From assembly GCF_044324785.1 (NCBI RefSeq), contig NZ_CP172129.1: a stretch of DNA of 64,000 nt. One strand, 5' to 3'. Source of the DNA: Escherichia coli. GTDB taxonomy: Bacteria > Pseudomonadota > Gammaproteobacteria > Enterobacterales > Enterobacteriaceae. The translations under genes and the position numbers were made by a program. The notes under the pieces are model-generated. The model saw only the letters and a program-made list of their open reading frames with translations. It was not told where the DNA came from and made no database searches. Below are positions 38,042-64,000 of this stretch, one piece after another. How positions within the stretch are numbered: the first letter of the stretch is position 1; each line of letters opens with the position of its first letter.

Positions 38042-38244
38042 CTTGTCTCCTAAAAGCGCTATTTCAGACCATCAGTTGCACACAGTAGATGATAATGATA
38101 ATCATTTACTGTATAATTGGCAATATATGGGGATTCATAGTCATTTCTGAGATAATATACGTTAGGCCTTCTCTCCCGTACGGAAATCACTTGTTTTCCG
38201 TAAATTACCTGAATCTTAATCCCTGAGCTGCGGCTAGCTGTGGA

Positions 38245-38582
38245 ACTCACAAAAGCTGACCGGGCCGTGGCACAGCCTCTCTGCTGGCAGAACAGCGTAC
38301 TGCAGAAGTCGTCGTACTGCCGCTGGTCCCGGCATCAGGTCTGCCCGCAGATGGCACTTCTGCCACTGATCTGCCGGTGGAGCTGAACGGCATGACATAT
38401 CAGGCCTGCCGTGGGGATTTTGTGGTGCGCCTCGACGGCAGCACCTGTCTGCAGTTATAGAATAAAGAAGGCGGGGAGGTACGCAGGGAGGGCGATCCGC
38501 TGGAAGTGGCGTAGTGGCTGTAGGCCTGTAATGATGCAGGAATAGAAGTTCGTGTACAGGTTAATGAAAGCATCACCCCGTA
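38245..38582 (+). pseudogene. Decayed copy of the 3' half of the gene at 47720-48310, with in-frame stops
   Basis: DNA aligns with 47955-48310 at high identity but carries stop codons (…CAGTTATAGAATAAA…, …GTGGCGTAGTGGCTGTAGGCC…). Confidence 0.6.
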
Positions 38583-38600
38583 AAAACATGCCGGCACGGT

Positions 38601-38909
38601 TTACACATCATTCCATGGTGGCAGCCGGTTAACTTTCCTGCGCCACCAGTGGAAAGAGGCCATGAGCAGTCCGAACAAAAAACCACTCGTGATACTTATA
38701 ATAATGGCCTCACCTGCTACCATTCCTGACGGCCCCCAGTACATAAACCACATTGCACATCCCCAGGAAATACCCCATAAGCCCCCCATCAGCAGCGTAA
38801 CCTGCCAGAACGGCATAAAGGGCAATGGCGGAAGCCGGATACCCAGCCGCCAGAGAATACGCAGCAGAGGAGGAGCATAATTACTCCGCCACATCTTTTT
38901 GCTGTCCAT
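38601..38909 (-). CDS. Small membrane protein, paralog of 48330-48587
   Basis: 102-aa ORF with hydrophobic segments; 28 aa longer than the paralog at 48330-48587. Confidence 0.45.
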   Translation of the reverse strand: MDSKKMWRSNYAPPLLRILWRLGIRLPPLPFMPFWQVTLLMGGLWGISWGCAMWFMYWGPSGMVAGEAIIISITSGFLFGLLMASFHWWRRKVNRLPPWNDV

Positions 38910-39076
38910 CAGGGCAATTGCCCGGGCTTTTTTTGCTCAAAAGTCACAGGAGCACCTCCGTTCCATGATGTAAACGTGACACAACTTATTGTTATTGATT
39001 ATTATTATCATACCGTGATTATGTTGTCATGCACCTGTACACTGATAAAAGAAAGGGAGAACAGGAGGCTGGCTGA

Positions 39077-39384
39077 ACAACCAATCCGTTCGTCCAGTTC
39101 AATGGCGGCTATCAGGTTCTGCTCCGCAATGTACTCACGAATGCGCTTCCTGTCCTGGCTGGTCAGCATGGTCCAGAATATCTCCATCATTTACCGGCGA
39201 CTTTCCTGCTCATTTCATCCCGCCATGCAGCAGCGGAAGATTCGACCATGTCATGGGGAAGCACATCGCCGCGCTCGAGTTGCTGACGTCCTGCCTCAAC
39301 CTGGTCACGGAACCAGGTATTATGCTGCCGTTCCACGGTCTGGCGCATAAAATCCCGGATTAACTGAGAGCCATTACGGTCCAT
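39077..39384 (-). pseudogene. Remnant of the ParE/RelE-type toxin and RHH antitoxin pair (toxin truncated after ~40 codons; antitoxin frameshifted at its 5' end)
   Basis: DNA aligns with 52190-52580; the toxin ORF runs into unrelated sequence; a 1-bp difference (GCAGGGCCAT versus GCAGCGGCCAT) removes the antitoxin start. Confidence 0.65.
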
Positions 39385-39742
39385 GCTTTTTGCAGGGCCA
39401 TAAAAGCATCCTTCAGTTCAGCGTCAATTCTTAAACTCATATTAACCTGTGCCATTTATCACCCCGTCATTACCACGTATATACACAGTATATAACGATT
39501 CAGATATCGTCACTAGGATATGCCGCGCCAGCGGCATGGAAGGCGGCACTCCGCTGTTTCATATGATACCGCCGAAGCCCGATGTAAGCCGCTACAGTCG
39601 TCCGAAAGTCACCAGCCTCCTCCCCCCTGCCGTCATCCGTGCATCAGCTATGCACTGAGTATGCCTGCCCTTCCCTAGAGAATCCTGCTAGGCTTGCCAC
39701 ACTGATATATCTTGACTTTATGTAAACGATATGACACTTTAA

Positions 39743-47462: not shown

Positions 47463-47723
47463 ATGGATGAAGAAAGGGTGTTTTCACTCAGCTATGAACA
47501 ACTGACCCGGTTTGCGGAAAAACGCATCCGGGAATGCAATCTGGACAGCCAGGGCGTAACTTATCTCTGCGAGTCAGCCAAAGCCGGAGCTGTGCTGATC
47601 TTCTGGCATGAACTGGCCATAAATGGCTATGCCTCAATGAATGCCATAAAGAGACAGGAGATCATTGACGCCGACCATCAGCGCCTCAGAAAGCTCATCT
47701 GGCCGGAGGATGACTGGAAATGA
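47463..47723 (+). CDS. Hypothetical protein (86 aa), first gene of an overlapping two-gene unit
   Basis: ORF with ATGA stop/start overlap to the next gene. Confidence 0.4.
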   Translation: MDEERVFSLSYEQLTRFAEKRIRECNLDSQGVTYLCESAKAGAVLIFWHELAINGYASMNAIKRQEIIDADHQRLRKLIWPEDDWK

Positions 47724-48310
47724 CTCAGAGCCGCCGACCGTCGCCACTGCAGCGAAGAATGCTGATTGTGCTGGCTGCCCTTGATGAAAAACGGCCAGGA
47801 CCCGTGCTGACGCGGGACATAGAACGGGTGCTGGAGCGAAGCGGGGAAGCCCCAGTCTACGGGCCAAACCTGCGCGCCTCCTGCCGTCGTCTGGAGGATG
47901 CCGGCTGGCTGCGTACCCTGCGCGCTCCGAACCTGCAGCTGGCAGTGGAGCTGACGGACGTCGGCCGGGCCGTGGCACAGCCTCTGCTGCTGGCAGAACA
48001 GGACCGCCTCCGGGCAGAACAGCGTGCGGCAGAAGTCGTCGTACTGCCGCTGGTCCCGGCAGCAGGTCTGCCCGCAGATGGCACTTCTGCCACTGATCTG
48101 GCGGTGCAGCTGAACGGCATAACGTATCAGGCCTGCCGTGGGGATTTTGTGGTGCATCTCGACGGCAGCACCTGTCTGCAGTTATGGAATAAAGAAGGCA
48201 GGGTGGTACGCCGGGAGGGCGATCCGCTGGAAGTGGCGCAGTGGCTGCAGGCCTGTCACGATGCAGGAATGGAGGTTCGCGTACAGATAAATGAAAGTGC
48301 CGCTCCGTAA
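47720..48310 (+). CDS. Hypothetical protein (196 aa), GC-rich
   Basis: Coupled to the upstream ORF; a decayed second copy exists at 38245-38582. Confidence 0.45.
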   Translation: MTQSRRPSPLQRRMLIVLAALDEKRPGPVLTRDIERVLERSGEAPVYGPNLRASCRRLEDAGWLRTLRAPNLQLAVELTDVGRAVAQPLLLAEQDRLRAEQRAAEVVVLPLVPAAGLPADGTSATDLAVQLNGITYQACRGDFVVHLDGSTCLQLWNKEGRVVRREGDPLEVAQWLQACHDAGMEVRVQINESAAP

Positions 48311-48329
48311 GAACACGCCTGTGCACGGT

Positions 48330-48587
48330 TTACACATCATCCCATGGTGGCAGCCGGTTAACTTTCCTGCGCCCCCAGTAGATAAACCACATTGCACATC
48401 CCCAGGAAATGCCCCATAAGCCCCCCGTCAGCACCGTGACCTGCCAGAACGGCATAAAGGGTAATGGCGGAAGCCGGATACCCAGCCGCCAGAGAATACA
48501 CAGAAGAGGAGGGGCATAATTGCTCCGCCACATCTTTTTGCTGTCCATCAGGGCAATGGCCCGGGCTTTTTTCTGCTCAAAGGTCAC
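48330..48587 (-). CDS. Small membrane protein (85 aa), paralog of 38601-38909 with a 28-aa in-frame deletion
   Basis: Hydrophobic ORF; aligns with 38601-38909. Confidence 0.4.
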   Translation of the reverse strand: MTFEQKKARAIALMDSKKMWRSNYAPPLLCILWRLGIRLPPLPFMPFWQVTVLTGGLWGISWGCAMWFIYWGRRKVNRLPPWDDV

Positions 48588-48715
48588 AGGAGCACCTCCG
48601 TTCCATGATGTAAACGTGACACAGCTTATTGTTATTGATTATTATTATCATGCTGTGGTTATGTTGTCATGCATCAGTACACTGACAAAAGTGCAAAAGA
48701 AAGGAAAACAGGCAG

Positions 48716-49072: not shown

Positions 49073-50953
49073 TTAAATACCCCAGAACTTATTCGCTTTT
49101 TCCACAAGCGATTCATCAATCAGCGCACCGGTGACAGCCATCAGTAAACCATACCCGATAATGCCTAAAGCGCTTCCGGTAAGAATACTGAAGACCAGTG
49201 CAACAAGAGCCGTTGCGGCATTGCCTGCTATAATGGCTTCTGTTTTAACAAAAAGAGGACGCCAGTTCTCTGTCCGGACACCCTTACCAAACTCAGTGAT
49301 CCAGTCAGCAAGACTTGTAAATTTTCCTGCATATCCCAGTCCCCGACTGAATCTGTTCAGATTAGACGATATATCAGACAGCTTCACTGACTCAAGGGCT
49401 GCGGCAATCGCTGCACGATCTTTTGCATTAATTTTTTTGTTAATGTCAGCCCGGTACTTTTCATACGTTTTTAATGCCTCTTCAACATTACGTATTTTCT
49501 TCCCTTTAGCCTGCCCGGCCATCTCTCTGGCTAACTGCTCAGCTTTTGCACCATATTTTTCTGAAACTGATTTCAGGAACTCTGTTGTGAAATTAATTGC
49601 GTCTTTCGTTGCCTTCAGTTCATCCTGTTTTCTTTTCTCTTCCGCTATCTTCTGATTGATGCCGGCAAGCTGGTTACGGATATTCTCTTTTTCCTTCAAC
49701 AGGGCATTAAGAGCGTCATTTGCATGCTTTTGCTCATTTGTTCTGGCACTGAGGTTATTTCTCGCAGAATTTACCGCAGATTCAGCAGAGGTGATTTTAT
49801 TTCTGGCATCAAGCAATCTTTGCCGTAACTTATCCCATTCAGCAACTTCAGCATTATAAATTTTCTTGTCACCTTCCACATCCTCTGTCACCACCGGATT
49901 CCGGTCATTCAGAATATTGCGTTTATAGTCCAGACCGGAATGGGTCAGAAGATAATTCAGGTTTGCACGGTTATCGATGACTGCGCTGGTTGTGATTTTT
50001 ATCGTACCGGCAAATCTCGGATCACCGCTCACAACAATAGAATGATTTGTTGATGAACGCCCCGGGAATTTTTCAGGGGAAACTATCGTTTTGCCGTCAA
50101 GCGTGTTTTTCTGTTGCGTCAGCTGTTGCTCAGCTCTGGTTAATGCATTACGGGCCGTGTTAAGCGATTCCGTCACTGAACTGAGTTTATTCCGGGCCTC
50201 TGAAATGGCCCTGTCATTCCGTGTCTGCTGCCCGAGCAGACGGGCCTGTTGTGCATCAAGAACGGCAAGGGCTGCCCCGCCATTTTTTTCCAGCTCTGAC
50301 AACCGCGTGTCCAGAATACCTTTTCTGCGCTCGTATTCAGCAAGCATATCAGCGGCCTTCTTGTCTGCGTTCTGCGCATCCTTCTGCCGTTTTTCAGCCT
50401 GTTCGATTAACGACCTGGCCTCCCGGGGAGATATACGAAGAGAATCAGCATCAGCAAAGAGCATCCGGCTCTCTGTATGCAGCCGGAGGGCATCATATCC
50501 GGCGATTTCAGTACGGAATCCGTATTCTCTCAGCTCTGCCTGCAGGAGTCTGAACTCCTGTCGTGTAATATCAGCGGCATCTGCGTTTCCGGCACGGAGT
50601 GTTTTCAGTGTGTTTTCATCTTTTTCCCTTGCAGCAATCGCCGCAGAGAGGCGTTTTGCGGCTTCAGTACGCTTATTCTCATTCTCTTTCTGCTGCGCGC
50701 TGAGCGTCATTTTGTACGCTGTGATTTCCTTGTCCCTTTTTTCGATATCACTTCGGGTTGGGGAATCATCGACCCACTCGTTTCCGCCCCAGATGGTTTT
50801 GTTCCCGAAGGAACTCCATGCAGGCGGGGTACCATGAAAGACATCGACACGTGGAGGGTTTACATAAATATCAACGGCCATAATTTCATGGCCATCTGAA
50901 TCATACCCCAGCGATTCTGCACCGGGATTTGTAATACGTACAGGGTCAGACAT
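49073..50953 (-). CDS. cia: Colicin Ia (pore-forming colicin)
   Basis: 626-aa ORF MSDPVRITNPGAESLGYDSDGHEIMAVDIYVNPPRVDVFHG… with long coiled coil and C-terminal hydrophobic channel domain. Confidence 0.9.
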   Translation of the reverse strand: MSDPVRITNPGAESLGYDSDGHEIMAVDIYVNPPRVDVFHGTPPAWSSFGNKTIWGGNEWVDDSPTRSDIEKRDKEITAYKMTLSAQQKENENKRTEAAKRLSAAIAAREKDENTLKTLRAGNADAADITRQEFRLLQAELREYGFRTEIAGYDALRLHTESRMLFADADSLRISPREARSLIEQAEKRQKDAQNADKKAADMLAEYERRKGILDTRLSELEKNGGAALAVLDAQQARLLGQQTRNDRAISEARNKLSSVTESLNTARNALTRAEQQLTQQKNTLDGKTIVSPEKFPGRSSTNHSIVVSGDPRFAGTIKITTSAVIDNRANLNYLLTHSGLDYKRNILNDRNPVVTEDVEGDKKIYNAEVAEWDKLRQRLLDARNKITSAESAVNSARNNLSARTNEQKHANDALNALLKEKENIRNQLAGINQKIAEEKRKQDELKATKDAINFTTEFLKSVSEKYGAKAEQLAREMAGQAKGKKIRNVEEALKTYEKYRADINKKINAKDRAAIAAALESVKLSDISSNLNRFSRGLGYAGKFTSLADWITEFGKGVRTENWRPLFVKTEAIIAGNAATALVALVFSILTGSALGIIGYGLLMAVTGALIDESLVEKANKFWGI

Positions 50954-50993: not shown

Positions 50994-51024
50994 ACTGCTT
51001 ACGTATGTGGATACATATACAGTA
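50994..51024. promoter_or_regulatory. Probable SOS operator (tandem overlapping LexA boxes) in the cia promoter
   Basis: On the cia strand: TTGACA …17 nt… TACTGTATATGTATCCACATACGTAAGCAG, containing CTGT-N8-type half sites. Confidence 0.55.
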
Positions 51025-51138
51025 TTAATTTATTAAGGAGAAAATGGCATGTCAAGATTTAATGATAGTGATTATCATTAACATGAAGTGATTTTACGTC
51101 TGGATAACGTAAATGATTGCGGTATACAGGCCAGGCGG

Positions 51139-51987
51139 TCAGATTTTCAGCCGTGCCTGTTCCTGCAGCAGTTCCAGATGATATGCAGCAATAGCGTTTA
51201 CCACCCCTGCCGTCATCCGTGCGTCGGCGATCGCTGAGTGTGCCTGCCCTTCCCAGGTCAGTCCGGCCTGGCTGGCAGCACAGGCCAGTGAAATCGTGCC
51301 ATAGCGGTTGGTGGCCCCATAATATCCTGCAGCCAGCTCCATCGCACAATATACCGTCAGTTCTTCCAGCCAGTCAGCCGGATCGCTATGTGCGGCAGCA
51401 GTCTGTTTCAGAATGCGGATGTCGAACCGGGCATTAAAGATAATTACTGGTCGGTCCCCGATTGCATGACGCAGTTGCCGCGCCACATCTGTCCATGATG
51501 GTGCGCCGCAGAGAGCCTGCTCGCTGATACCATGCACAGCGGCGGCCTGCGCCCCGATGGCGACCGTGGGCTTCAGCCTGGTTTCAAATACCACCTGACC
51601 GGACGCATCGGTCAGGCCGATTTCCAGAGCTTCCGCGGTATTGTCCAGTCCTGTCGTTTCAGTATCCAGAAAGAGCGGTGCCAGACTCAGCCAGTCATAT
51701 GCCTGCCGTGCCATCCGGCCACTGGTGCTGTTAAGTCTGGATAAAACGGAAAGTCGCTGGCCAGCCAGAAGTTGTTTACTCGTCAGTGGGCGTTTCTCAC
51801 GCATCGGAACACAGTCTGCAATTCGGTATACAGCGAACCTGCCACCATAAGTGTTTTTATACCACTTAACCGGCTCAGCACCGGGGGCTGGCTTCATTCT
51901 GAATTCATCGCGCAGCCGTTCTTTCGAGAAACACCTGTCTTCGGCAATCGCCTGCGCACGTCTGGTGGCCAGCTCATCATTATTCAT
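51139..51987 (-). CDS. DnaQ-like 3'-5' exonuclease (DEDDh) domain protein with an N-terminal extension
   Basis: 282-aa ORF with Exo I motif (…LFLDTETTGLD…) and later H/D motifs (…HSAIADARMTA…). Confidence 0.6.
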   Translation of the reverse strand: MNNDELATRRAQAIAEDRCFSKERLRDEFRMKPAPGAEPVKWYKNTYGGRFAVYRIADCVPMREKRPLTSKQLLAGQRLSVLSRLNSTSGRMARQAYDWLSLAPLFLDTETTGLDNTAEALEIGLTDASGQVVFETRLKPTVAIGAQAAAVHGISEQALCGAPSWTDVARQLRHAIGDRPVIIFNARFDIRILKQTAAAHSDPADWLEELTVYCAMELAAGYYGATNRYGTISLACAASQAGLTWEGQAHSAIADARMTAGVVNAIAAYHLELLQEQARLKI

Positions 51988-52032
51988 GGTTCTTGCATCT
52001 CCGTCAGACCTTTTTATATCCGGACAGCCCCT

Positions 52033-52314
52033 CTATGGCCACTTCTGTGCAGTATGCAATACACGCAGGATATACACTTTTCCCCACTGGCTGTCGACCT
52101 CATAAACCAGAACAAAATGCGGGTGAATAACCAGTTCCCGGGTACCTTCCACACGACCGTTGCGGCCTTTATACGGCTGCCCGGCCAGGCTGCTGGCTGA
52201 ATAACCAATCCGTTCGTCCAGTTCAATGGCGGCCATCAGGTTCTGCTCCGCAATGTACTCACGAATGCGCTTCCTGTCCTGGCTGGCCAGCATGGTCCAG
52301 AATATCTCCATCAT
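52033..52314 (-). CDS. RelE/ParE-superfamily type II toxin
   Basis: 93-aa ORF overlapping the upstream antitoxin by 4 bp; ParE/RelE-like C-terminus (…HPHFVLVYEVDSQWGKVYILRVLH…). Confidence 0.65.
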   Translation of the reverse strand: MMEIFWTMLASQDRKRIREYIAEQNLMAAIELDERIGYSASSLAGQPYKGRNGRVEGTRELVIHPHFVLVYEVDSQWGKVYILRVLHTAQKWP

Positions 52315-52580
52315 TTACCGGCGACTTTCCTGCTCATTTCATCCCGCCATGCAGCAGCGGAAGATTCGACCATGTCATGGGGAAGCACATCGCCGCGCTC
52401 GAGTTGCTGACGTCCTGCCTCAACCTGGTCACGGAACCAGGTATTATGCTGCCGTTCCACGGTCTGGCGCATAAAATCCCGGATTAACTGAGAGCCATTA
52501 CGGTCCATGCTTTTTGCAGCGGCCATAAAAGCATCCTTCAGTTCAGCGTCAATTCTTAAACTCATATTAACCTGTGCCAT
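52311..52580 (-). CDS. Ribbon-helix-helix type II antitoxin
   Basis: 89-aa ORF MAQVNMSLRIDAELKDAF… upstream of the toxin. Confidence 0.6.
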   Translation of the reverse strand: MAQVNMSLRIDAELKDAFMAAAKSMDRNGSQLIRDFMRQTVERQHNTWFRDQVEAGRQQLERGDVLPHDMVESSAAAWRDEMSRKVAGK

Positions 52581-53190
52581 TTATCACCTCGTCATTACTA
52601 CGTATATACACAGTATATAACGATTCAGATATCGTCACCAGAATATGCCGCGTCAGCGGCATGGAAGGCGGCACTCTGTTGTTGCATATGACACAGGAGT
52701 AAAACCGCCGAAGCCCGGCGTAAGCCGGTACGGACTGATAGATTTCACCTTACCCATCCCCAGCCCTGCTAGGCCATATCCGCTTTCAGCCATGATAAAG
52801 CTTCTGTGCGCGGTCGGAGTGGTCCCGACGAGGGTTTACCCGAAGTCGGGGCGTATCTCCGCGTTAGCGGGCCGTCAGGGCCGCTTACGAGCGTGTACTC
52901 AATACTTTCAGCGAGAAGACTGACAGCCATGATGGAGTATAGTTACAACATTCATAATTAAAAGCGACTCTGTTCCGGCCCGAAGGGCCGGGGCGGGGCC
53001 GCTTTTCAGTTATGAGGGAGGGGCTTTGTGGTTTCAGTTCTGCGCTGGTTCGGGGTTTTTCTGGAGGTTGGTTTTGTGTGTTGTAACTAAAGTGGCTCCG
53101 GTTGGGGCCCGCCGTTTACGGTGGGAGGTGCATATCTGTCTGTCCACAGGACAGGCAGTGAATAGGTTTTCTTTTTAAATGAATGTAATT

Positions 53191-53228
53191 GGGGAGCCCG
53201 CAGAATTCGGAAAAAATCGTACGCTAAG
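53191..53228. repeat. 38-bp Tn3-superfamily terminal inverted repeat (GGGGAGCCCGCAGAATTCGGAAAAAATCGTACGCTAAG)
   Basis: GGGG…ACGCTAAG pattern overlapping the tnpA stop. Confidence 0.8.
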
Positions 53229-56190
53229 GTTTTCCGGGCATCCGTAAGGGCCGAAACTTCCCGTCTTCCAGTCTGCGGCTCTGCCGCCAGACGTAATCGC
53301 CGGTTAGGTTGATGTGCTCCCAGCCCAGCGGCGACAGGAATTGCAGCAGCTCGCCGTCCACCGGCTTGCCGGCCTCGACCAACCCCTGGGTGGCGCGTTC
53401 CAGGTACACCGTGTTCCACAGCACGATAGCCGCCGTCACCAGGTTGAGGCCGCTGGCCCGGTAGCGCTGCTGCTCGAAGCTCCGATCCCTGATTTCCCCA
53501 AGGCGGTTGAAGAACACCGCCCTGGCCAGCGAGTTGCGCGCCTCACCTTTGTTCAGGCCGGCATGCACGCGGCGGCGCAGTTCAACACTTTGCAGCCAGT
53601 CCAGGATGAACAGCGTGCGCTCGATCCGGCCCAGCTCGCGCAGGGCCACGGCCAGTCCGTTCTGGCGCGGGTAGCTGCCGAGCTTGCGCAGCATCAGCGA
53701 GGCGGTGACGGTGCCCTGCTTGATCGAGCTGGCCAGGCGCAGGATGTCGTCCCAGTGGGCACGCACGTGCTTGATGTTCAGGGTGCCGCCGATCAGCGGG
53801 CGCAACGTCGGGTAGGCTTGCACGCCCTGCGGCACGTACAGCTTGGTTTCGCCGAGGTCGCGGATGCGCGGCGCGAAGCGGAAGCCTAGCAGGTGCATCA
53901 GGGCAAAGACGTGATCGGTGAAGCCGGCCGTGTCGGTGTAGTGCTCCTCGATCCGCAGGTCGGACTCGTGGTACAGCAGGCCGTCGAGCACATAGGTGGA
54001 ATCGCGGACGCCGACATTCACCACGCGGGTGCTGAACGGCGCGTACTGGTCGGAGATATGGGTATAGAACAGCCGTCCCGGCTCGCTACCGTACTTCGGG
54101 TTGACGTGCCCGGTGCTCTCGCCCCGGCCACCCGCGCGGAAGCGCTGGCCATCGGAGGATGAGGTCGTGCCGTCGCCCCAGTGGGCGGCAAAGGCGTGGC
54201 GATACTGGTGGTTGACCAGCTCGGCCAAGGCCGCCGAATAGGTTTCGTCGCGGATGTGCCAGGCTTGCAGCCAGGACAGCTTGGCGTAGGTCAGGCCGGG
54301 GCTCGACTCGGCCATCTTGGTCAGCCCGAGGTTGATCGCATCACCGAGGATTGCGGACAGCAGCAACGTCCTGTCTTTGGCCTCGGCCCCGTCCTTCAAG
54401 TGGGTGAAGTGGCGGCTGAAGCCCGTCCAGTCGTCCACGTCCATCAGCAGTTCGGTGATCTTGATGCGCGGCAGTAACTGGCTGGTTTGGTCGATCAGCG
54501 CCTGCGCCCGATCCGGCACCGCCGCATCCAGCGGGGTGATTTTCAGCCCTGACTCGGTGAGGATGGCATCGGGCAGCTCGTTGTCCTTGGCCAGGCGGGT
54601 GACGGTGGCCAACTGCTCGTCCAGCAGCTGCAAACGCTCTTCCAGGTACTGGTCGCTGTTCGGGTTGATCGCCAGGGGCAGGGCCTGCTCGCGCTTGAGT
54701 GCGGCGAACTTCTCGGCCGGCAGCAGGTAGTCGTCGAAGTCGCGGAACTGCCGCGAGCCCTTGACCCAGATGTCGCCGGAGCGCAGGGCGTTCTTCAGCT
54801 CGGACAGGGCGCAGATTTCGTAGAATTTCCGGTCGAGGCCTTCCGGGGTGATCACCAGCGGCTTCCAGCGCGGCTTGATGAAGGCCGTGGGTGCATCGGC
54901 CGGCACCTTGCGCAGGTTGTCGGCGTTCATCTCACGCAGGGTCTGCACGGCTGCCAGCACGCCTTGCGCGGCCGGCGCGGCGCGCAGTTCCAGCACCTCC
55001 AGCAAGGCCGGCGTGTAACGGCGCAGGGTGGCGAAGTTCTCGCCGACCAGGTGCAGGTGGTCGAAGCCTTCCGGCCGGGCCAGCAGCTCGGCCTCGCTGA
55101 CGCTCTCGGTGAACTCGTCCCAGGGAATCACCGCCTCGATGGCGGCATAGGGGTCGCTGCCGCTTTCCTTCGCTTCCAGCAGCGCCTGGCCGATCCTGGA
55201 GTACAGGCGCACCTTGTCGTTGATCGCCTTGCCCTGCTTCTGGAACTGCTGCTGATGCTTGTGCTTCGCGCCGCTGAACAGCTTGACCAGGATGCGGTCA
55301 TGCAGATCGACCAGCTCATCGATCACGGTCGCGGTGCTCTCCAGCACCACGGCGGCCAGGGTCGCGTAGCGGCGCTGCGGCTCGAACTTACCGAGGTCTT
55401 TGGGCGTCATCTGCCCACCCTCGCGGGCCAGCTTGAGCAGGCGGTTCTGGTGGATGTGCCGGCCCAGGCCTTCGGGCAAGTCCACCAACTGAAATGTCTT
55501 CAGCCGCTCGATGTGTTCCAGCATGTGCCGAGAGTTGGGTTTCAGCGGTGCCTGGCGCAGCCAGGTCAACCAGGTGATGCTGCTGCCGGCCTTGAGCTTC
55601 AACAGCTCGTCCAGCTTGGCCCGATGCGAGTCCGTGAGTGGTTCGACCAGGGCGCGGTAGACCCGCCGATTGGCTCGCGCAATGGCTTCCGAGCAGGCCC
55701 GGTCAATCACGCTCAGCGCCGGCAGGATGCGTCGTTTCTGCCGTAGGCTCTCCAGGGCCTGACCGGCCAGCAGCAAGCCTTTGTCGGTCTGCTGGGCCAG
55801 CTCGGTTAGCTCGCGCACCAGGGCGCGGAAGTCGGACAGGCCGAACGGGGCCAGTTGCAGGTAGGTGCGCAGTTCCTGGGCATGCTCGCGACGGGTCACG
55901 TCGCGCTCGCCGTACTTTGCCCAGCTCGCCGGCTCGGCCTGGACTTGCTTCGCCACCCACAGGATGACCGGCTCGGGCAGCTCGCTGTCGGTTCCCAGCG
56001 CGTAACCGGGGTAGCGCAGCAGGCAGAGCTGCACGGCGAAGCCGAGGCGGTTGGCGTCGCCGCGTCGCTGGCGGATCAGCGACAGGTCGGAGTCGTTGAA
56101 GGTGTAGTAGCGGATCAGGTCATCCTGGCTTTCCGGCAGCGCAAGCAGGGTGTCCCGCTCCGTGGCCGAGAGGATCAAGCGACGCGGCAT
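53224..56190 (-). CDS. tnpA: Tn21-family transposase TnpA
   Basis: 988-aa ORF with DDE transposase of the Tn3 family. Confidence 0.9.
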
Positions 56191-56193
56191 GTG

Positions 56194-56754
56194 TCAGTCG
56201 TCCGTGCGGAGGTACTGGTAGAGGGTTTCCCGGCTGATGTTGAACTCGCGGGCAAGCTGCGCCTTGGGCTCGCCGGCCGTCGCTCGCTGCCGCAGGGTAG
56301 CAGCCTGCTCATCGGACAGGGCTTTCTTGCGGCCCCGGTACGCGCCACGCTGCTTGGCCAAGGCGATGCCCTCACGCTGCCGCTCGCGGATCAGGGCGCG
56401 CTCGAACTCAGCGAAGGCCCCCATCACCGACAGCATCAGGTTGGCCATCGGCGAGTCCTCGCCAGTGAACACCAGGCCCTCCTTCAGGAACTCGATGCGC
56501 ACGCCGCGCTGAGTCAGCTTCTGTACCAAGCGACGCAGGTCATCGAGGTTGCGGGCCAGCCGATCCATGCTGTGCACCACCACTGTATCGCCTTCGCGGA
56601 CGAAGCTCAGCAGCGCTTCGAGCTGGGGGCGCTGGGTGTCCTTGCCCGATGCCTTGTCGGTGAACACCTTGCTCACCTGGGTTTGTTCCAGCTGGCGTTC
56701 CGGGTTCTGGTCAAAGCTGCTGACCCGGACGTAGCCGATGCGGTGCCCCTGCAC
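56194..56754 (-). CDS. tnpR: Tn21-family resolvase TnpR (serine recombinase)
   Basis: 186-aa ORF MQGHRIGYVRVSSFDQNPERQ… with catalytic serine region and C-terminal HTH. Confidence 0.9.
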   Translation of the reverse strand: MQGHRIGYVRVSSFDQNPERQLEQTQVSKVFTDKASGKDTQRPQLEALLSFVREGDTVVVHSMDRLARNLDDLRRLVQKLTQRGVRIEFLKEGLVFTGEDSPMANLMLSVMGAFAEFERALIRERQREGIALAKQRGAYRGRKKALSDEQAATLRQRATAGEPKAQLAREFNISRETLYQYLRTDD

Positions 56755-56929
56755 GATGTCTCCTTGGTTGAAGGCGGCTTAAGTGCACTTTCTGTTCCGT
56801 TGTGCCTCAAAGCCCATTTCTGTCAGGCTGAAATCTATAACCTTCGCGGGCATGTGTCAAAAAATGGGAAAGCAGACTCTATTCTGACGAAGCGGCGCGG
56901 CCCTGCCTGACATCAAGTTAGGGTATGCC
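56755..56929. promoter_or_regulatory. res (resolution) site region between tnpR and tnpM
   Basis: Position immediately upstream of tnpR as in Tn21; sub-sites not individually mapped. Confidence 0.5.
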
Positions 56930-57280
56930 TCAACCTGACGGCGGCGAATCACAAGCGTCCGGTTTGACGCTGGTTTCGGTCGCAGTGCTGGCCCGCGCCT
57001 GGAAGCGCTGATAGCACTCCAGCCCGCAGAAATGCTCCACGTACTCGGCCCCTTCCGGCGTGAAGGCGGCATCGAGCGGGATTTCCTTGCAGCACACGCA
57101 GCAACTGGTGCTCGGTTCATTGGCGTTCATGGTGGTGTTCCTCCATTGGTTGACGAAGCCGACGAAGGCCGCCGCCGGCATCGGCCTGGCGAACAGGAAA
57201 CCCTGCACCGTGTCGCAACCCGCCTGCCGCAACCACGCAAGGCAGTCGGGTGTTTCCACACCCTCGGCTACCACCTCCAT
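56930..57280 (-). CDS. tnpM: TnpM (urf2M), Tn21 transposition modulator
   Basis: 116-aa ORF starting [19 protein letters not shown]…, ending adjacent to res and beginning at IRi. Confidence 0.7.
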
Positions 57281-57305
57281 TGTCGTTTTCAGAAGACGGC
57301 TGCAC
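57281..57305. repeat. IRi, 25-bp inverted repeat at the intI1 end of the class 1 integron
   Basis: TGTCGTTTTCAGAAGACGGCTGCAC. Confidence 0.8.
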
Positions 57306-57482
57306 TGAACGTCAGAAGCCGACTGCACTATAGCAGCGGAGGGGTTGGATCCATCAGGCAACGACGGGCTGCTGCCGGCCATCAGCGGACGCAGGGAGGA
57401 CTTTCCGCAACCGGCCGTTCGATGCGGCACCGATGGCCTTCGCGCAGGGGTAGTGAATCCGCCAGGATTGACTTGCGCTGCC

Positions 57483-58496
57483 CTACCTCTCACTAGTGAG
57501 GGGCGGCAGCGCATCAAGCGGTGAGCGCACTCCGGCACCGCCAACTTTCAGCACATGCGTGTAAATCATCGTCGTAGAGACGTCGGAATGGCCGAGCAGA
57601 TCCTGCACGGTTCGAATGTCGTAACCGCTGCGGAGCAAGGCCGTCGCGAACGAGTGGCGGAGGGTGTGCGGTGTGGCGGGCTTCGTGATGCCTGCTTGTT
57701 CTACGGCACGTTTGAAGGCGCGCTGAAAGGTCTGGTCATACATGTGATGGCGACGCACGACACCGCTCCGTGGATCGGTCGAATGCGTGTGCTGCGCAAA
57801 AACCCAGAACCACGGCCAGGAATGCCCGGCGCGCGGATACTTCCGCTCAAGGGCGTCGGGAAGCGCAACGCCGCTGCGGCCCTCGGCCTGGTCCTTCAGC
57901 CACCATGCCCGTGCACGCGACAGCTGCTCGCGCAGGCTGGGTGCCAAGCTCTCGGGTAACATCAAGGCCCGATCCTTGGAGCCCTTGCCCTCCCGCACGA
58001 TGATCGTGCCGTGATCGAAATCCAGATCCTTGACCCGCAGTTGCAAACCCTCACTGATCCGCATGCCCGTTCCATACAGAAGCTGGGCGAACAAACGATG
58101 CTCGCCTTCCAGAAAACCGAGGATGCGAACCACTTCATCCGGGGTCAGCACCACCGGCAAGCGCCGCGACGGCCGAGGTCTTCCGATCTCCTGAAGCCAG
58201 GGCAGATCCGTGCACAGCACCTTGCCGTAGAAGAACAGCAAGGCCGCCAATGCCTGACGATGCGTGGAGACCGAAACCTTGCGCTCGTTCGCCAGCCAGG
58301 ACAGAAATGCCTCGACTTCGCTGCTGCCCAAGGTTGCCGGGTGACGCACACCGTGGAAACGGATGAAGGCACGAACCCAGTGGACATAAGCCTGTTCGGT
58401 TCGTAAGCTGTAATGCAAGTAGCGTATGCGCTCACGCAACTGGTCCAGAACCTTGACCGAACGCAGCGGTGGTAACGGCGCAGTGGCGGTTTTCAT
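57483..58496 (-). CDS. intI1: Class 1 integron integrase IntI1
   Basis: 337-aa [52 protein letters not shown]…. Confidence 0.95.
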
Positions 58497-58651
58497 GGCT
58501 TGTTATGACTGTTTTTTTGTACAGTCTATGCCTCGGGCATCCAAGCAGCAAGCGCGTTACGCCGTGGGTCGATGTTTGATGTTATGGAGCAGCAACGATG
58601 TTACGCAGCAGGGCAGTCGCCCTAAAACAAAGTTAACCCGGAACCAAAATT
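58497..58651. other. attI1 recombination site and cassette promoter region (5'-conserved segment)
   Basis: …GCCCTAAAACAAAGTTA… junction immediately before the first cassette. Confidence 0.7.
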
Positions 58652-59125
58652 GTGAAAGTATCATTAATGGCTGCAAAAGCGAAAAACGGAGTGATTGGTT
58701 GCGGTCCACACATACCCTGGTCCGCGAAAGGAGAGCAGCTACTCTTTAAAGCCTTGACGTACAACCAGTGGCTTTTGGTGGGCCGCAAGACGTTCGAATC
58801 TATGGGAGCACTCCCTAATAGGAAATACGCGGTCGTTACTCGCTCAGCCTGGACGGCCGATAATGACAACGTAATAGTATTCCCGTCGATCGAAGAGGCC
58901 ATGTACGGGCTGGCTGAACTCACCGATCACGTTATAGTGTCTGGTGGCGGGGAGATTTACAGAGAAACATTGCCCATGGCCTCTACGCTCCATATATCGA
59001 CGATTGATATTGAGCCGGAAGGAGATGTTTTCTTTCCGAATATTCCCAATACCTTCGAAGTTGTTTTTGAGCAACACTTTAGCTCAAACATTAACTATTG
59101 CTATCAAATTTGGCAAAAGGGTTAA
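58652..59125 (+). CDS. dfrA5: Trimethoprim-resistant dihydrofolate reductase cassette, DfrA5-like (possibly DfrA14)
   Basis: 157-aa ORF with GTG start, [40 protein letters not shown]…; first cassette after attI1. Confidence 0.8.
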
Positions 59126-59202
59126 CAAAGCTATGCAATTGACGGTAAAAAGCTTCGTTCGCTTCGCTTGCTACGCTTCTTACCGCAATTGATAACGGCG
59201 TT
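59126..59202. other. attC (59-base element) of the dfrA cassette, followed by about 21 bp of 3'-conserved segment before IS26
   Basis: Imperfect palindrome ending in core GTTAGAT; then GCACTAAGCACATAATTG (start of 3'-CS) abutting the IS26 end. Confidence 0.6.
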
Positions 59203-59223
59203 AGATGCACTAAGCACATAATT

Positions 59224-60383
<1,160 letters not shown>

Positions 60384-60553
60384 TACGCCTATTTTTATAG
60401 GTTAATGTCATGATAATAATGGTTTCTTAGACGTCAGGTGGCACTTTTCGGGGAAATGTGCGCGGAACCCCTATTTGTTTATTTTTCTAAATACATTCAA
60501 ATATGTATCCGCTCATGAGACAATAACCCTGGTAAATGCTTCAATAATATTGA

Positions 60554-61426
<873 letters not shown>

Positions 61427-61535
61427 CTGTCAGACCAAGTTTACTCATATATACTTTAGATTGATTTAAAACTTCATTTTTAATTTAAAAGGATCTAGGT
61501 GAAGATCCTTTTTGATAATCTCATGACCAAAATCC

Positions 61536-61573
61536 CTTAACGTGAGTTTTCGTTCCACTGAGCGTCAGACCCC
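61536..61573. repeat. 38-bp terminal inverted repeat of Tn2/Tn3 (bla end)
   Basis: CTTAACGTGAGTTTTCGTTCCACTGAGCGTCAGACCCC. Confidence 0.9.
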
Positions 61574-61575
61574 TT

Positions 61576-61960
61576 ATGGCAGAGCAGGGAAAGGAATTGC
61601 CGGGCTATGTGCAACGGGAATTTGAAGAATTTCTCCAATGCGGGCGGCTGGAGCATGGCTTTCTACGGGTTCGCTGCGAGTCTTGCCACGCCGAGCACCT
61701 GGTCGCTTTCAGCTGTAAGCGTCGCGGTTTCTGCCCGAGCTGTGGGGCGCGGCGGATGGCCGAAAGTGCCGCCTTGCTGGTTGATGAAGTACTGCCTGAA
61801 CAACCCATGCGTCAGTGGGTGTTGAGCTTCCCGTTTCAGCTGCGTTTCCTGTTTGGGGTCGTTTGCGGGAAGGGGCGGAATCCTACGCTAAGGCTTTGGC
61901 CAGCGATATTCTCCGGTGAGATTGATGTGTTCCCAGGGGATAGGAGAAGTCGCTTGATAT
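61576..61960 (+). pseudogene. N-terminal fragment of an IS91-family-like transposase (zinc-ribbon domain), truncated by IS26
   Basis: ORF …GRLEHGFLRVRCESCHAEHLVAFSCKRRGFCPSCGARRMAESAALLVDE… with Cys/His cluster typical of IS91-family N-termini; ends at the IS26 terminus. Confidence 0.5.
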
Positions 61961-62780
61961 GGCACTGTTGCAAATAGTCGGTGGTGATAAACTTATCATC
62001 CCCTTTTGCTGATGGAGCTGCACATGAACCCATTCAAAGGCCGGCATTTTCAGCGTGACATCATTCTGTGGGCCGTACGCTGGTACTGCAAATACGGCAT
62101 CAGTTACCGTGAGCTGCAGGAGATGCTGGCTGAACGCGGAGTGAATGTCGATCACTCCACGATTTACCGCTGGGTTCAGCGTTATGCGCCTGAAATGGAA
62201 AAACGGCTGCGCTGGTACTGGCGTAACCCTTCCGATCTTTGCCCGTGGCACATGGATGAAACCTACGTGAAGGTCAATGGCCGCTGGGCGTATCTGTACC
62301 GGGCCGTCGACAGCCGGGGCCGCACTGTCGATTTTTATCTCTCCTCCCGTCGTAACAGCAAAGCTGCATACCGGTTTCTGGGTAAAATCCTCAACAACGT
62401 GAAGAAGTGGCAGATCCCGCGATTCATCAACACGGATAAAGCGCCCGCCTATGGTCGCGCGCTTGCTCTGCTCAAACGCGAAGGCCGGTGCCCGTCTGAC
62501 GTTGAACACCGACAGATTAAGTACCGGAACAACGTGATTGAATGCGATCATGGCAAACTGAAACGGATAATCGGCGCCACGCTGGGATTTAAATCCATGA
62601 AGACGGCTTACGCCACCATCAAAGGTATTGAGGTGATGCGTGCACTACGCAAAGGCCAGGCCTCAGCATTTTATTATGGTGATCCCCTGGGCGAAATGCG
62701 CCTGGTAAGCAGAGTTTTTGAAATGTAAGGCCTTTGAATAAGACAAAAGGCTGCCTCATCGCTAACTTTGCAACAGTGCC
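61961..62780 (+). mobile_element. IS26 (820 bp), copy 2, inverted relative to copy 1
   Basis: GGCACTGTTGCAAA at 61961 and TTTGCAACAGTGCC at 62767-62780. Confidence 0.95.
62024..62728 (+). CDS. tnp26: IS26 transposase Tnp26
   Basis: Protein sequence identical to copy 1. Confidence 0.95.
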   Translation: MNPFKGRHFQRDIILWAVRWYCKYGISYRELQEMLAERGVNVDHSTIYRWVQRYAPEMEKRLRWYWRNPSDLCPWHMDETYVKVNGRWAYLYRAVDSRGRTVDFYLSSRRNSKAAYRFLGKILNNVKKWQIPRFINTDKAPAYGRALALLKREGRCPSDVEHRQIKYRNNVIECDHGKLKRIIGATLGFKSMKTAYATIKGIEVMRALRKGQASAFYYGDPLGEMRLVSRVFEM

Positions 62781-63238
62781 CTCTTGTCCTCGTCCGGTAA
62801 GAAGTCGGGATTGACGGCATTGCGGGACACCACATCAACGGCGCGTCCGAACATTCGCGACAGCCTGCGCTCAAACGGACATTGATCAACCGATAGGCTG
62901 TGAACAGCGCCAAGTTGCTGCCCCATTGACGGCCACGCTTTGAGCAAATCCGCTCCAGACAGATCAGCCGCCGGTACTCCCGGAATTGCCGTTATCACCA
63001 AGCATGCACCCTCCTGTTCCTCCTGCCAGTTGATGACCTCGGGGCAAGCCACACCTCGACCTTTGAGCCAAATGAGGCGGTCACGCTCTCCAGCGAGCTC
63101 ACCGCGGCGGGAAGCAGGTGCGATTTTCGCGAAGGCATGCCCGTCACCACGTCGAAAAACAAAATCACCAGATTCTCCGCCTCTGACAGGCAACCAGTCA
63201 GAATGCGATTCACCAAAAAAAATATTAGTTCGATTCAA
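62781..63238 (-). pseudogene. strA: strA / aph(3'')-Ib, 5' portion only (about 153 codons), 3' end removed by IS26
   Basis: MNRTNIFFGESHSDWLPVRGGESGDFVFRRGDGHAFAKIAPASRRGELAGERDRLIWLKG… then …DEDK fused to IS26 sequence. Confidence 0.9.
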
Positions 63239-63298
63239 TGGAGGTTCCTTCAGTTTTCTGATGAAGCGCGAATATAGAGAAATATCCCGAATGTGCAG

Positions 63299-64000
63299 TT
63301 AACGAATTCTTGCGGTTTCTTTTAGCGCCGCCAATACCGCCAGCCCGTCGCGCAAGGGGCGCGGCTCGTGTGTGCGGATGAAGTCAGCTCCACCTGCGGC
63401 GGCGGCAAGCTCTGCAGCGAGTGTCGCGGCCCCGACATCCCCCGGACCACGGCCTGTGAGCGCGCGCAGAAAGGATTTGCGCGAAACAGACAGAAGCACC
63501 GGCAAATCGAAGCGCAGCCGCAATTCATCGAACCGCGCCAGCACCGAGAGCGAGGTTTCGGGAGCAGCCCCCAGAAAAAACCCCATGCCGGGATCAAGGA
63601 CAAGGCGGTTGCGTTTGATACCGGCACCCGTCAGCGCCGCGATGCGCGCGTCAAAGAACGCCGCAATGTGATCCATGATGTCGCCAGCGGGTGCCTCGCG
63701 CCGATCTGCCTGCCCGTCTTGCACCGAATGCATAACGACGAGTTTGGCAGATGATTTCGCCAATTGCGGATAGAACGCAGCGTCTGGAAAACCGCGAATA
63801 TCATTGAGATAGGCCACACCACGCGACAAGGCATAGGCTTGCGTCGCGGGTTGATAACTGTCGAGCGAGACGGGAATGCCATCTGCCTTGAGCGCGTCCA
63901 GCACCGGCGCGATACGCTCGATTTCTGTGTCGGACGAAACAGGCGCGGCGTCGGGGTTGCTGGATGCCGGACCGAGGTCGATCACATCTGCCCCCTCGGC
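63299..64000 (-). CDS. sul2: Sul2 sulfonamide-resistant dihydropteroate synthase; 5' end lies beyond the window
   Basis: …DLGPASSNPDAAPVSSDTEIERIAPVLDALKADGIPVSLDSYQPATQAYALSRGVAYLNDIRGFP…; the reading frame continues to the window edge. Confidence 0.9.
   Translation of the reverse strand, partial: AEGADVIDLGPASSNPDAAPVSSDTEIERIAPVLDALKADGIPVSLDSYQPATQAYALSRGVAYLNDIRGFPDAAFYPQLAKSSAKLVVMHSVQDGQADRREAPAGDIMDHIAAFFDARIAALTGAGIKRNRLVLDPGMGFFLGAAPETSLSVLARFDELRLRFDLPVLLSVSRKSFLRALTGRGPGDVGAATLAAELAAAAGGADFIRTHEPRPLRDGLAVLAALKETARIR

Follow-up and report, generated by a model that had tools for sequence, protein, structure and literature searches.

Gene identity and neighbors

The window, a 64,000-nt stretch of the E. 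coli contig NZ_CP172129.1 (assembly GCF_044324785.1), carries yacC on its minus strand. The gene lies between the colicin Ia gene and a ParE/RHH toxin-antitoxin (TA) pair, the position given for it in a preliminary description of this DNA. The features of the locus are as follows.

49073..50953, minus strand: cia (colicin Ia), downstream neighbor of yacC (ORF and annotation)
51139..51987, minus strand: yacC coding sequence, two-domain 3'-5' exonuclease (282 aa plus stop, ATG start, intact ORF)
51988..52032, minus strand: yacB-yacC spacer, 45 nt, with GGAG upstream of the ATG, in frame with yacB (from sequence)
52033..52314, minus strand: yacB, ParE-I toxin, 93 aa (PF05016, ParE_toxin, E 4.3e-17; annotated YacB; PMC6614396)
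52311..52580, minus strand: yacA, ParD-I RHH antitoxin, 89 aa (weak RHH/RelB matches; annotated YacA; PMC6614396)
52603..52619, minus strand: perfect palindrome TATATAC-TGT-GTATATA in the yacA promoter region (from sequence)

yacC is already known and long annotated, and nothing at the sequence level sets the window copy apart from that of pS88. The pS88 protein WP_001057989.1 ('3'-5' exonuclease') is 100% identical to it and is encoded in the same yacA-yacB-yacC-cia order, and other ColV/ColIa plasmids have copies with 100% DNA identity that bear the same annotation. The pS88 gene, pS88103, is called yacC and its product is annotated 'putative exoribonuclease' (PMC3438092); the name is also in use for IncC and IncP-1 genes. 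IncI1 copies are 96-99% identical and follow repA in the order yacA-yacB-exonuclease, with a 39-nt gap before yacC, which bears out the earlier suspicion of a conserved 'yac' gene of the IncI type. Near-full-length yacC is present in ~12% of complete E. coli genomes. Homologs are found on IncI1, IncL/M (86% identity), IncC (50%) and IncP-1 plasmids, and the layout of an N-terminal domain (N-domain) followed by an exonuclease is kept among relatives down to ~30% identity. By its sequence, the protein belongs to the YacC family on two counts: its gene is nearly identical to those called yacC, and it has both domains. The dN/dS of yacC is 0.13-0.16 against its IncI1 and IncL/M orthologs, and the gene is under purifying selection.

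A literature search for yacC and plasmid DnaQ-like exonucleases returned annotations only, and no functional, biochemical or genetic study. The main text of the IncI, IncL and pESBL Tn-seq/RNA-seq papers does not mention yacC. The silence of the Tn-seq work on IncI and IncL plasmids fits non-essentiality and carries no positive information on role.

The three yac genes are adjacent and co-oriented, and a terminator scan of the yacB-yacC spacer predicted none. In pS88 the transcript ratios of yacA, yacB and yacC move together, while that of cia differs (PMC3438092). It appears that yacC probably shares a transcript with yacAB in IncI1 and IncF plasmids. cia is predicted to have its own promoter, with a promoter-like TTGACA-17-TAAATT ahead of it at 51055..51027 and a LexA-like box (1 mismatch) nearby at 51007-51024. 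The palindrome at 52603..52619 is a candidate YacA operator; it also resembles a LexA box (pattern match, 2 mismatches). Upstream of yacA the window has a Tn3-family/integron resistance island, where pS88 has the IncFII repA.

A second, decayed copy of the locus lies elsewhere in the window.

39062..39595, minus strand: yacA' (frameshifted), 5' part of yacB' and promoter region (94.7% identity to 52186-52731)
39624..39675, minus strand: remnant of the 3' part of a second yacC, 52 nt, codons ~245-262 (88% identity to 51204-51254, E 5e-12)

yacA' holds a 1-nt frameshift and yacB' is truncated, while the palindrome is identical to that of the intact copy. A fragment of a second yacC does exist beside the decayed TA genes, as had been described, although it lies at 39624-39675 rather than 39600-39660 and breaks the collinearity with the intact copy. 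An origin by simple deletion inside yacABC was rejected, because the yacC remnant is upstream of yacA'.

The exonuclease domain

51139..51678, minus strand: DEDDh exonuclease domain, aa 104-282, with a long C-terminal helix at its end (PF00929, PADLOC, phrog, Foldseek)
51658..51666, minus strand: Exo I motif, D108-T-E110 (alignment to epsilon and relatives)
51421..51423, minus strand: Exo II catalytic D189, in the motif NARFD (alignment to epsilon and relatives)
51223..51240, minus strand: Exo III motif, H250-x4-D255, the 'h' subtype (alignment to epsilon and relatives)

The preliminary description had placed a DEDDh exonuclease in the C-terminal two-thirds of the protein, with a boundary near aa 100, and a profile search agrees with this. 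Pfam RNase_T (PF00929) matches aa 106-262 (E 3.4e-15; 57.4 bits, cutoff 24 bits), the DEDDh (DnaQ/RNase T-type) domain spans residues ~105-265, and aa 1-103 have no match. The PADLOC DEDDh profile (6.6e-29) and phrog_192 (1.8e-36) also match. Residues D108/E110/D189/H250/D255 align with D12/E14/D103/H162/D167 of E. coli epsilon. The DEDD catalytic set is complete, and all five are at least 90% conserved in 42 relatives. The AF2 model (pLDDT 96.9) predicts an RNase H-like alpha/beta fold. Its best PDB match by Foldseek is Pol III epsilon, 2gui (E 8e-9, TM(target) 0.79), and 1j53 is matched at a similar E of about 1e-8; further matches are ExoX, the DinG exonuclease domain, a CRISPR-associated DnaQ domain, RNase T and ERI-type structures. 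Profile, catalytic residues and fold all place YacC in the DEDDh (DnaQ/RNase T) superfamily PF00929, and the protein is most likely an active enzyme.

Orthology to a characterized housekeeping exonuclease is not seen. DnaQ, ExoX and RNase T were each rejected as identities for YacC, since the scores are far under the NCBIfam cutoffs (TIGR01406, 55.3 against 222.7; NF004316, 52.8 against 196). YacC shares the DEDDh residues and the RNase H-like fold with E. coli Pol III epsilon (DnaQ) at about 23% identity. The alignment to the 243-aa epsilon stops near residue 180, whereas YacC ends in a single helix at 282; YacC lacks the C-terminal alpha-/clamp-binding segment of epsilon, and epsilon lacks the basic N-domain of YacC. 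Unlike epsilon, YacC is plasmid-borne and accessory. ExoX and the CRISPR-associated DEDDh/DnaQ enzymes (Cas2-DnaQ) are stand-alone or fused 3'-5' DNA exonucleases that trim 3' overhangs, and 4fzx and 8h2f are among the top structure matches, at only about 21-24% identity; YacC differs from them in its N-terminal domain and has no adjacent cas genes. Phage 186 Orf81, the P2-like 'DNA polymerase exonuclease subunit' (phrog_192) and N15 gp41 have ~37% identity to the exonuclease domain. Genes of the Orf81 type, like yacC, sit on a mobile replicon, within its replication/early operon. In phage 186 and N15 the protein has no basic N-domain, while Vibrio telomere phages have the two-domain form.

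The choice between DNA and RNA as substrate is not readable from the sequence. The 'putative exoribonuclease' of pS88 would be an RNase T/Orn-like enzyme, a view in keeping with PF00929, which takes in both RNases and DNases, with the RNase T and ERI-type fold matches, and with a weak match to an Rv2179c-like profile. The best sequence and structure matches, however, are DNA enzymes (epsilon, the PolC exonuclease, ExoX and the CRISPR-associated DnaQ domain), and the gene neighborhoods are made up of DNA-metabolism genes. YacC thus most likely prefers DNA, and an RNA substrate is distinctly unlikely.

The same profile hits raise the question of a defense or exclusion nuclease directed at incoming phage or rival-plasmid DNA, given the PADLOC 'DEDDh' match, a match to the candidate system PDC-S48 (5e-22), and a colicin and a TA system as neighbors. 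These matches span the generic exonuclease domain only (9-168 of the 411-position PDC-S48 profile), and neither a full-length match nor the partner genes required for PADLOC DEDDh or PDC-S48 membership were found. The neighbors are cia and yacB rather than cas genes or a sensor partner, phages themselves carry homologs, and a processive 3'-5' exonuclease would act without evident self/non-self discrimination. A defense role is therefore highly improbable.

The N-terminal domain

51679..51987, minus strand: N-terminal domain, aa 1-103, basic alpha/beta, with no family assignment

The first ~100 residues had been called uncharacterized, and the searches leave them so. The N-domains of 39 family members gave no Pfam match at E <= 1, BHD_1, BHD_2 and BHD_3 included, and a PDB sequence/profile search with the N-domain gave no usable match. 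With only the N-domain as query, a word-index protein search recovered same-family fragments and pseudogenes, and no new domain partners.

The N-domain has a net charge of +9, and its charge is positive in 41 of 41 relatives, in contrast to the net negative charge of the exonuclease domain. It is conserved from ~30% identity upward, it and the catalytic domain have equal dN/dS values, and some relatives have two tandem copies. A conserved, strongly basic domain under purifying selection is a new observation for this family, and the domain probably binds DNA. For aa ~17-68 the best structural match by two methods is to the Rad4/XPC beta-hairpin domains (BHD), with marginal scores and among PDB fold neighbors only; the predicted fold weakly resembles these DNA-binding domains. 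Like the N-domain, the BHD is a small alpha/beta unit that can occur in tandem; it has no sequence similarity to the N-domain and is not nuclease-fused in Rad4/XPC.

Linkage to the toxin-antitoxin pair

ParDE-I (YacAB) is the immediate upstream neighbor of yacC, and it is possible, if quite unlikely, that YacC is a functional third part of yacABC. It would then process DNA ends arising from gyrase poisoning by ParE-I and so enhance or temper killing, or it would affect toxin or antitoxin expression. yacC is adjacent to the pair on the same strand, with a 45-nt spacer and no terminator; the order is kept in IncI1 and IncF plasmids, and the pS88 transcripts change similarly. The spacer keeps the frame of yacB, and ParE and YacC are fused in a natural variant (P0001). 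ParE-I expression induces the SOS response (PMC6614396), and in a Salmonella plasmid a different ParDE pair lies next to a kfrA-exonuclease arrangement.

The comparison across relatives argues against a third component. yacAB lies beside a yacC-family gene in 1 of 13 species-level loci, which come from a narrow N-domain alignment and are biased towards Gammaproteobacteria; the linkage is missing from the other 12. Genes of the family occur without yacAB in IncL/M, IncC and other plasmids, in ICEs and in a telomere phage, so that YacC is mostly found without ParDE-I, and yacAB is also found without yacC. In an IncFIA plasmid, the ORF that follows yacB is no YacC remnant. The fusion variant arises from one in-frame stop-to-Gln change, present in a few sequences of 98% identity. 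ParDE-I is defined and works as a two-gene system, a definition that excludes YacC, and when cloned alone it stabilizes plasmids and gives tolerance (PMC6614396). By the literature and by the natural occurrence of yacAB without yacC, and on these grounds only, no third gene is needed for TA function. The IncI1 plasmid pESBL, for which no ORF is listed between repZ and yafA, is even so described as very stable, in line with this independence. A family-wide three-component module is not what the loci display: the TA linkage is confined to the IncI1/IncF lineage, a local arrangement rather than a conserved partnership, which is a new observation. The exonuclease-TA linkage had been read as a possible sign of plasmid maintenance or anti-phage/anti-plasmid functions; the idea that it is informative in itself is thus not supported. 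An anti-phage or anti-plasmid role is likewise unsupported.

Gene neighborhoods of relatives

More widely, yacC is associated with genes for replication and partition, kfrA in particular. In at least six lineages KfrA is encoded directly upstream of the gene or elsewhere in its cluster; ParA is encoded near the yacC-family gene in several relatives, and RepL in the same cluster as one relative. A tyrosine or serine recombinase gene is adjacent in IncC, in two ICE/plasmid lineages, on a Marinobacter contig and in IncP-1. In a Vibrio telomere phage, helicase-primase, protelomerase and ParAB genes flank the yacC homolog, and phage 186 Orf81, an exonuclease-only homolog, is part of the operon for early replication, with the annotation 'not essential'. 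The neighborhoods are heterogeneous and all typical of plasmid backbones, and the clustering with KfrA, Par and recombinase genes is descriptive and may reflect the general packing of maintenance genes.

Some neighborhoods suggest an establishment or anti-defense factor, one that would break down 3'-ended nucleic acids of host immunity, such as guides, spacer precursors or msDNA, or act on the strand that enters by conjugation. In two ICE/plasmid lineages the gene adjoins ArdC beside a relaxase, and in one of these an ArdB/KlcA-type anti-restriction gene and an orphan methyltransferase are also adjacent. The IncL/M homolog comes after a run of small unknown ORFs. uvrD is near the homolog in IncC and in a Methylotuvimicrobium plasmid, and UvrD of the recipient reportedly assists the conversion of single strands to double strands (PMC10085688). 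The resemblance of the exonuclease domain to CRISPR-associated DEDDh trimmers points the same way. In IncI1 and IncF, however, yacC is found beside the replicon, outside the leading region that carries ssb, psiB and ardA. The early-conjugation RNA-seq study says nothing of yacC in its main text, and its plasmid, pESBL, has no ORF listed between repZ and yafA, the position of yacABC. No known anti-defense family matches YacC, and most neighbors are replication or partition genes. We consider this role unlikely.

Plasmid-borne Y-family polymerases (MucAB, ImpCAB, UmuDC-like) are a further set of neighbors, for which YacC might act in trans as a proofreader or end-trimmer. mucAB adjoins the homolog in IncL/M, a UmuC-like gene is 1.8 kb upstream in Methylotuvimicrobium buryatense, and a Y-family polymerase gene is 5 kb from yacC in IncI1. 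The nearest folds are proofreading exonucleases, and the BHD domains that the N-domain resembles sense lesions and mismatches. Such proximity is seen in only 3 of ~15 lineages, though, and the IncL/M genes are convergent and not co-operonic. No such polymerase gene adjoins yacC in the window, and YacC lacks an epsilon-like C-terminal polymerase-binding tail, all of which makes a proofreading role very improbable.

A model for YacC function

We propose, with a rough probability of 0.55, that YacC is a non-essential, replicon-borne 3'-5' DNA exonuclease of two domains, independent of the TA pair and encoded distally in the yacABC unit. yacC is an accessory backbone gene of enterobacterial plasmids. 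The acidic C-terminal DEDDh domain would remove nucleotides at free 3'-OH ends by two-metal catalysis. Nucleic-acid binding is the most likely task of the basic N-domain, with duplex DNA or a single-strand/duplex junction as the probable ligand, and the domain would hand the 3' end to the active site. In this plasmid yacC would be transcribed last in a yacA-yacB-yacC unit and would therefore be under YacA/YacAB autoregulation. The most likely role is to trim 3' DNA ends on intermediates of the replicon's own replication, recombination or transfer, and YacC may provide a maintenance or establishment function that the plasmid can do without and that does not depend on the TA pair.

A more specific version, tentative and rather unlikely, is that the YacC family is a dedicated mobile-element enzyme with a specific function of its own, not described so far, that would measurably alter plasmid establishment, stability or mutation rate. 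The N-domain might recognize distorted or junction DNA whose 3' end is then trimmed, together with KfrA or the machinery for segregation and replication; otherwise YacC might disarm a host defense that relies on 3'-ended DNA.

Significance

The window holds a known, annotated gene in its usual place, and as a finding this is ordinary. The analysis offers corrections: the TA linkage is lineage-specific, the wider association is with replication and partition genes (kfrA), and the N-terminal 100 residues form a conserved basic domain, probably DNA-binding, that no domain database describes. yacC is among the commonest plasmid genes with a clear enzymatic domain and no assigned role. The main resistance-plasmid groups (IncI1, IncF, IncL/M and IncC) have homologs in their backbones, and if yacC affects plasmid establishment, stability or mutagenesis, it would have a bearing on the spread of antibiotic resistance.

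Identity and transcription of yacC

yacC, which encodes a DEDDh-type exonuclease, has the following neighbours, and the immunity gene of colicin Ia is also on its downstream side:

49073..50953, colicin Ia gene cia, downstream of yacC
51139..51987, minus strand, yacC, intact ORF of 282 codons
52033..52314, ParE-family toxin gene yacB, upstream of yacC
52311..52580, RHH antitoxin gene yacA, upstream of yacC

The preliminary description had placed the exonuclease between cia and the ParE/RHH pair, which is its position. The gene is YacC itself, and since it is known, annotated and in its usual place, the finding is ordinary. pS88 (pECOS88) carries the 1.8-kb segment with yacC at 100% identity, as do many more ColV/ColIa plasmids of the IncFIB/FII type from E. 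coli and Salmonella; in them its genes are annotated as yacA, yacB and '3'-5' exonuclease'. The pS88 transcriptome paper lists pS88103 as 'yacC, putative exoribonuclease' (PMC3438092). IncI1 plasmids have the order repA-yacA-yacB-exonuclease, with 96-99% protein identity. The name yacC has also been given to an IncC gene with 50% identity, arranged as int-yacC-ter-kfrA-uvrD (PMC8169936), and to a gene between resA and traC2 in IncP-1 plasmids (PMC3104523). A match is present in 1039 of 5426 complete E. coli genomes, 653 of which have at least 80% of the gene, mostly plasmid-borne, and 2678 plasmids in PLSDB encode at least 80% of a YacC homologue. No functional study of yacC was found in the literature searched.

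In its local setting yacC has the look of a third gene on the yacAB transcript. A 45-nt spacer with GGAG and no predicted terminator separates it from the co-oriented yacB, and in pS88 the expression of yacA, yacB and yacC shifts together, unlike that of cia (PMC3438092). The yacA promoter probably drives yacC in the present plasmid. The yacB stop codon and the spacer (51988-52035) are in frame with yacC, and a stop-to-Gln variant gives a 384-aa ParE-YacC fusion (P0001, 98% identical), rare and seen in a few public assemblies. The yacA promoter region (52596-52619) contains a perfect 7-3-7 palindrome, TATATAC-TGT-GTATATA (52603-52619), which also fits a LexA-box pattern at two mismatches and is kept in the second, decayed copy of the neighbourhood (39473-39490). 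It could serve YacA as an operator, act as a weak SOS box, or do both; ParE-I reportedly induces the SOS response (PMC6614396). Just past the yacC stop codon, ahead of the cia promoter, is an AT-rich 8-bp inverted repeat (51092-51114; ATTTACGT...ACGTAAAT); it has no T-tract and so is not a typical terminator. Transcription may read through from yacC into cia.

The exonuclease domain

YacC belongs to the DEDDh superfamily, as first described. An RNase_T/DEDD exonuclease domain covers residues 106-262 (Pfam; E 3.4e-15, 57 bits vs a 24-bit cut-off), and the DEDDh subtype's set of five catalytic residues is complete: D108 and E110 (LDTETTGL), D189 (NARFD), and H250 and D255 (HSAIAD). They align to D12/E14/D103/H162/D167 of E. 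coli epsilon, the DNA polymerase III subunit, and across 42 aligned relatives, which reach as low as about 30% identity, their conservation is 90% or higher. An AlphaFold2 model based on 42 diverse homologues has very high confidence (pLDDT 96.9, pTM 0.87). Foldseek superposes the C-terminal domain of this model on Pol III epsilon (E 8e-9, TM 0.79 on target), with further matches to ExoX, the S. aureus DinG exonuclease domain, a CRISPR-associated DnaQ domain, PolC and RNase T. Orthology to epsilon is rejected: YacC scores below the cut-offs of DnaQ-type models (e.g. TIGR01406, 55 bits vs 223; NCBIfam) and lacks the alpha-binding tail.

With these residues and this fold, YacC is very probably an active metal-dependent 3'-5' exonuclease. 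Its substrate would probably be DNA ends, because the nearest sequence and structural relatives and the DNA-metabolism neighbours point to DNA over RNA; an RNA substrate is quite unlikely. A defence or exclusion nuclease is scarcely probable, since the PADLOC matches are to the generic domain only, and YacC is not part of any defined defence system.

The N-terminal domain

Residues 1-103 are as uncharacterised as first noted: they have no Pfam match (39 family members searched) and no PDB sequence match, and none of the Foldseek matches listed above extends over them. In the model they start with a helix, followed by a small five-stranded sheet with short strands and one helix; a helical hairpin then connects to the exonuclease domain. 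This part is a true conserved domain rather than a linker, since it aligns across the family (L25, P33, C59 and Q72 near-invariant), has the same dN/dS as the catalytic domain (0.11-0.16), has a net positive charge in each of 41 relatives (median +9, pI 9.8) and occurs in tandem. In two relatives, P0181 and P0226, its core motif (...L+..+G.+P....P......LY...DC...) is duplicated ahead of the exonuclease domain. Across the 41 relatives the exonuclease domain, by contrast, is net negative (median -10, pI 4.8). The basic N-domain may well provide substrate binding or targeting. It cannot be filed under BHD, the Rad4/XPC beta-hairpin DNA-binding domain, which its predicted fold weakly resembles. 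Three family proteins (P0123, P0126, P0150) have unrelated C-terminal extensions.

Neighbourhoods of YacC relatives

The toxin-antitoxin linkage is lineage-specific and is lost across the wider family. In a scan of 13 loci (one genome per species, seeded with the N-domain), yacAB is present in one and a KfrA_N gene lies within 3 kb in five, counts that are descriptive. yacAB also occurs without yacC, and plasmid records at 90% identity or more number 1841 for YacB vs 1291 for YacC. It is unlikely that YacC is a true component of a three-part toxin-antitoxin system: Kamruzzaman and Iredell characterised yacAB as ParDE-I, a system that stabilises plasmids when cloned alone (PMC6614396). For pESBL, an IncI1 plasmid described as extremely stable, no ORF is listed between repZ and yafA. 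The preliminary description had named, as grounds against its reading, orthology to a housekeeping exonuclease together with unconserved linkage; the orthology is absent and the linkage is indeed unconserved, so that half of that objection stands.

The KfrA_N association is, descriptively, wider. KfrA_N genes are directly upstream of, or clustered with, YacC-family genes at L008-L010 (5039-6858), L012 (4891-6876), L025, L026, L032, L004 and L006/L027, with overlapping start and stop codons in several of these loci. Three species-level loci, a 270-kb plasmid from Salmonella and a Logan metagenome contig encode a KfrA_N protein directly upstream of the exonuclease, often with an overlap at the start codon. 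The Enterobacter plasmid homologue (72%) is within a kfrA gene cluster, and the IncC order is int-yacC-x-ter-kfrA-uvrD. Other lineages have integrase-ParA-x-exonuclease, RepL-x-x-exonuclease, KfrA-like-exonuclease-CsrA-ParAB or SprT-resolvase-exonuclease, and a Vibrio telomere phage has Cro-helicase/primase-x-exonuclease adjoining a protelomerase and ParAB. Phage 186 Orf81, an exonuclease-only homologue, is in the early replication operon and annotated 'not essential'. Since plasmids, ICEs and phage-plasmids repeatedly carry the gene in clusters for replication and partition, and given the Orf81 context, YacC may be an accessory, non-essential factor for its replicon's own DNA transactions, in replication, recombination/resolution, segregation or establishment (probability about 0.5).

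Two ICE/plasmid lineages have the exonuclease beside ArdC and near a TraI_2 relaxase, one of them with an ArdB/KlcA-type gene. These neighbours would fit an establishment or anti-defence factor, which is nonetheless unlikely: yacC is replicon-proximal in IncI1/IncF and goes unmentioned among the early-induced genes of a conjugation study, although the plasmid of that study lacks yacABC. The IncL/M homologue (86% identical) follows small unknown ORFs and is convergent with mucAB. umuDC-, mucAB- or impB-like genes lie 0-5 kb from the homologue in three otherwise different replicons, L031 (2388-4111), L003 (5872-7559) and L002 (8642-). Such adjacency, in 3 of about 15 lineages, is what a trans-proofreader for plasmid Y-family polymerases would show, a role that is very unlikely for YacC.

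The second copy and flanking regions

Self-comparison shows that 38228-39595 repeats 47933-48691 and 52186-52731 at 85-95% identity, with 38228-39051 corresponding to the former and 39062-39595 to the latter. The second copy thus duplicates the DUF6404...yacBA neighbourhood minus imm, cia, yacC and the 3' part of yacB. The yacC fragment noticed earlier beside this remnant is a 52-nt piece (39624-39675) matching codons ~245-262 (88% identity, E 5e-12). It is upstream of yacA', the antitoxin remnant, on the 'wrong' side, so the remnant did not arise from a collinear yacABC by internal deletion alone, and more than one rearrangement is implied. yacA' has a one-base frameshift; its pS88 counterpart is annotated as intact.

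A GC-rich patch (47500-48500, 60-65%) adjoins the DUF6404 gene, has several long overlapping ORFs on both strands, and is duplicated at 38228-38653 (85% identity). Its 196-aa ORF (47720-48310) had no family match. A resistance island (53224-63985) starts about 640 bp upstream of yacA, where pS88 has the IncFII repA region:

53224-56190, Tn3-family transposase
56194-56754, serine-recombinase (resolvase-type) gene
57483-58496, class 1 integron integrase
58652-59125, dfrA
60566-61426, blaTEM
63299-63985, sul2

Significance

What is established for YacC is at the level of sequence, structure prediction and neighbourhood, from which we infer the functional steps. The modest additions are a conserved, basic, database-orphan N-domain, a lineage-specific toxin-antitoxin linkage, and recurrent kfrA, recombinase and replication-gene neighbours. 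They are leads rather than discoveries, the neighbourhood associations being descriptive, and the remaining interest is in what so widespread a plasmid gene does.
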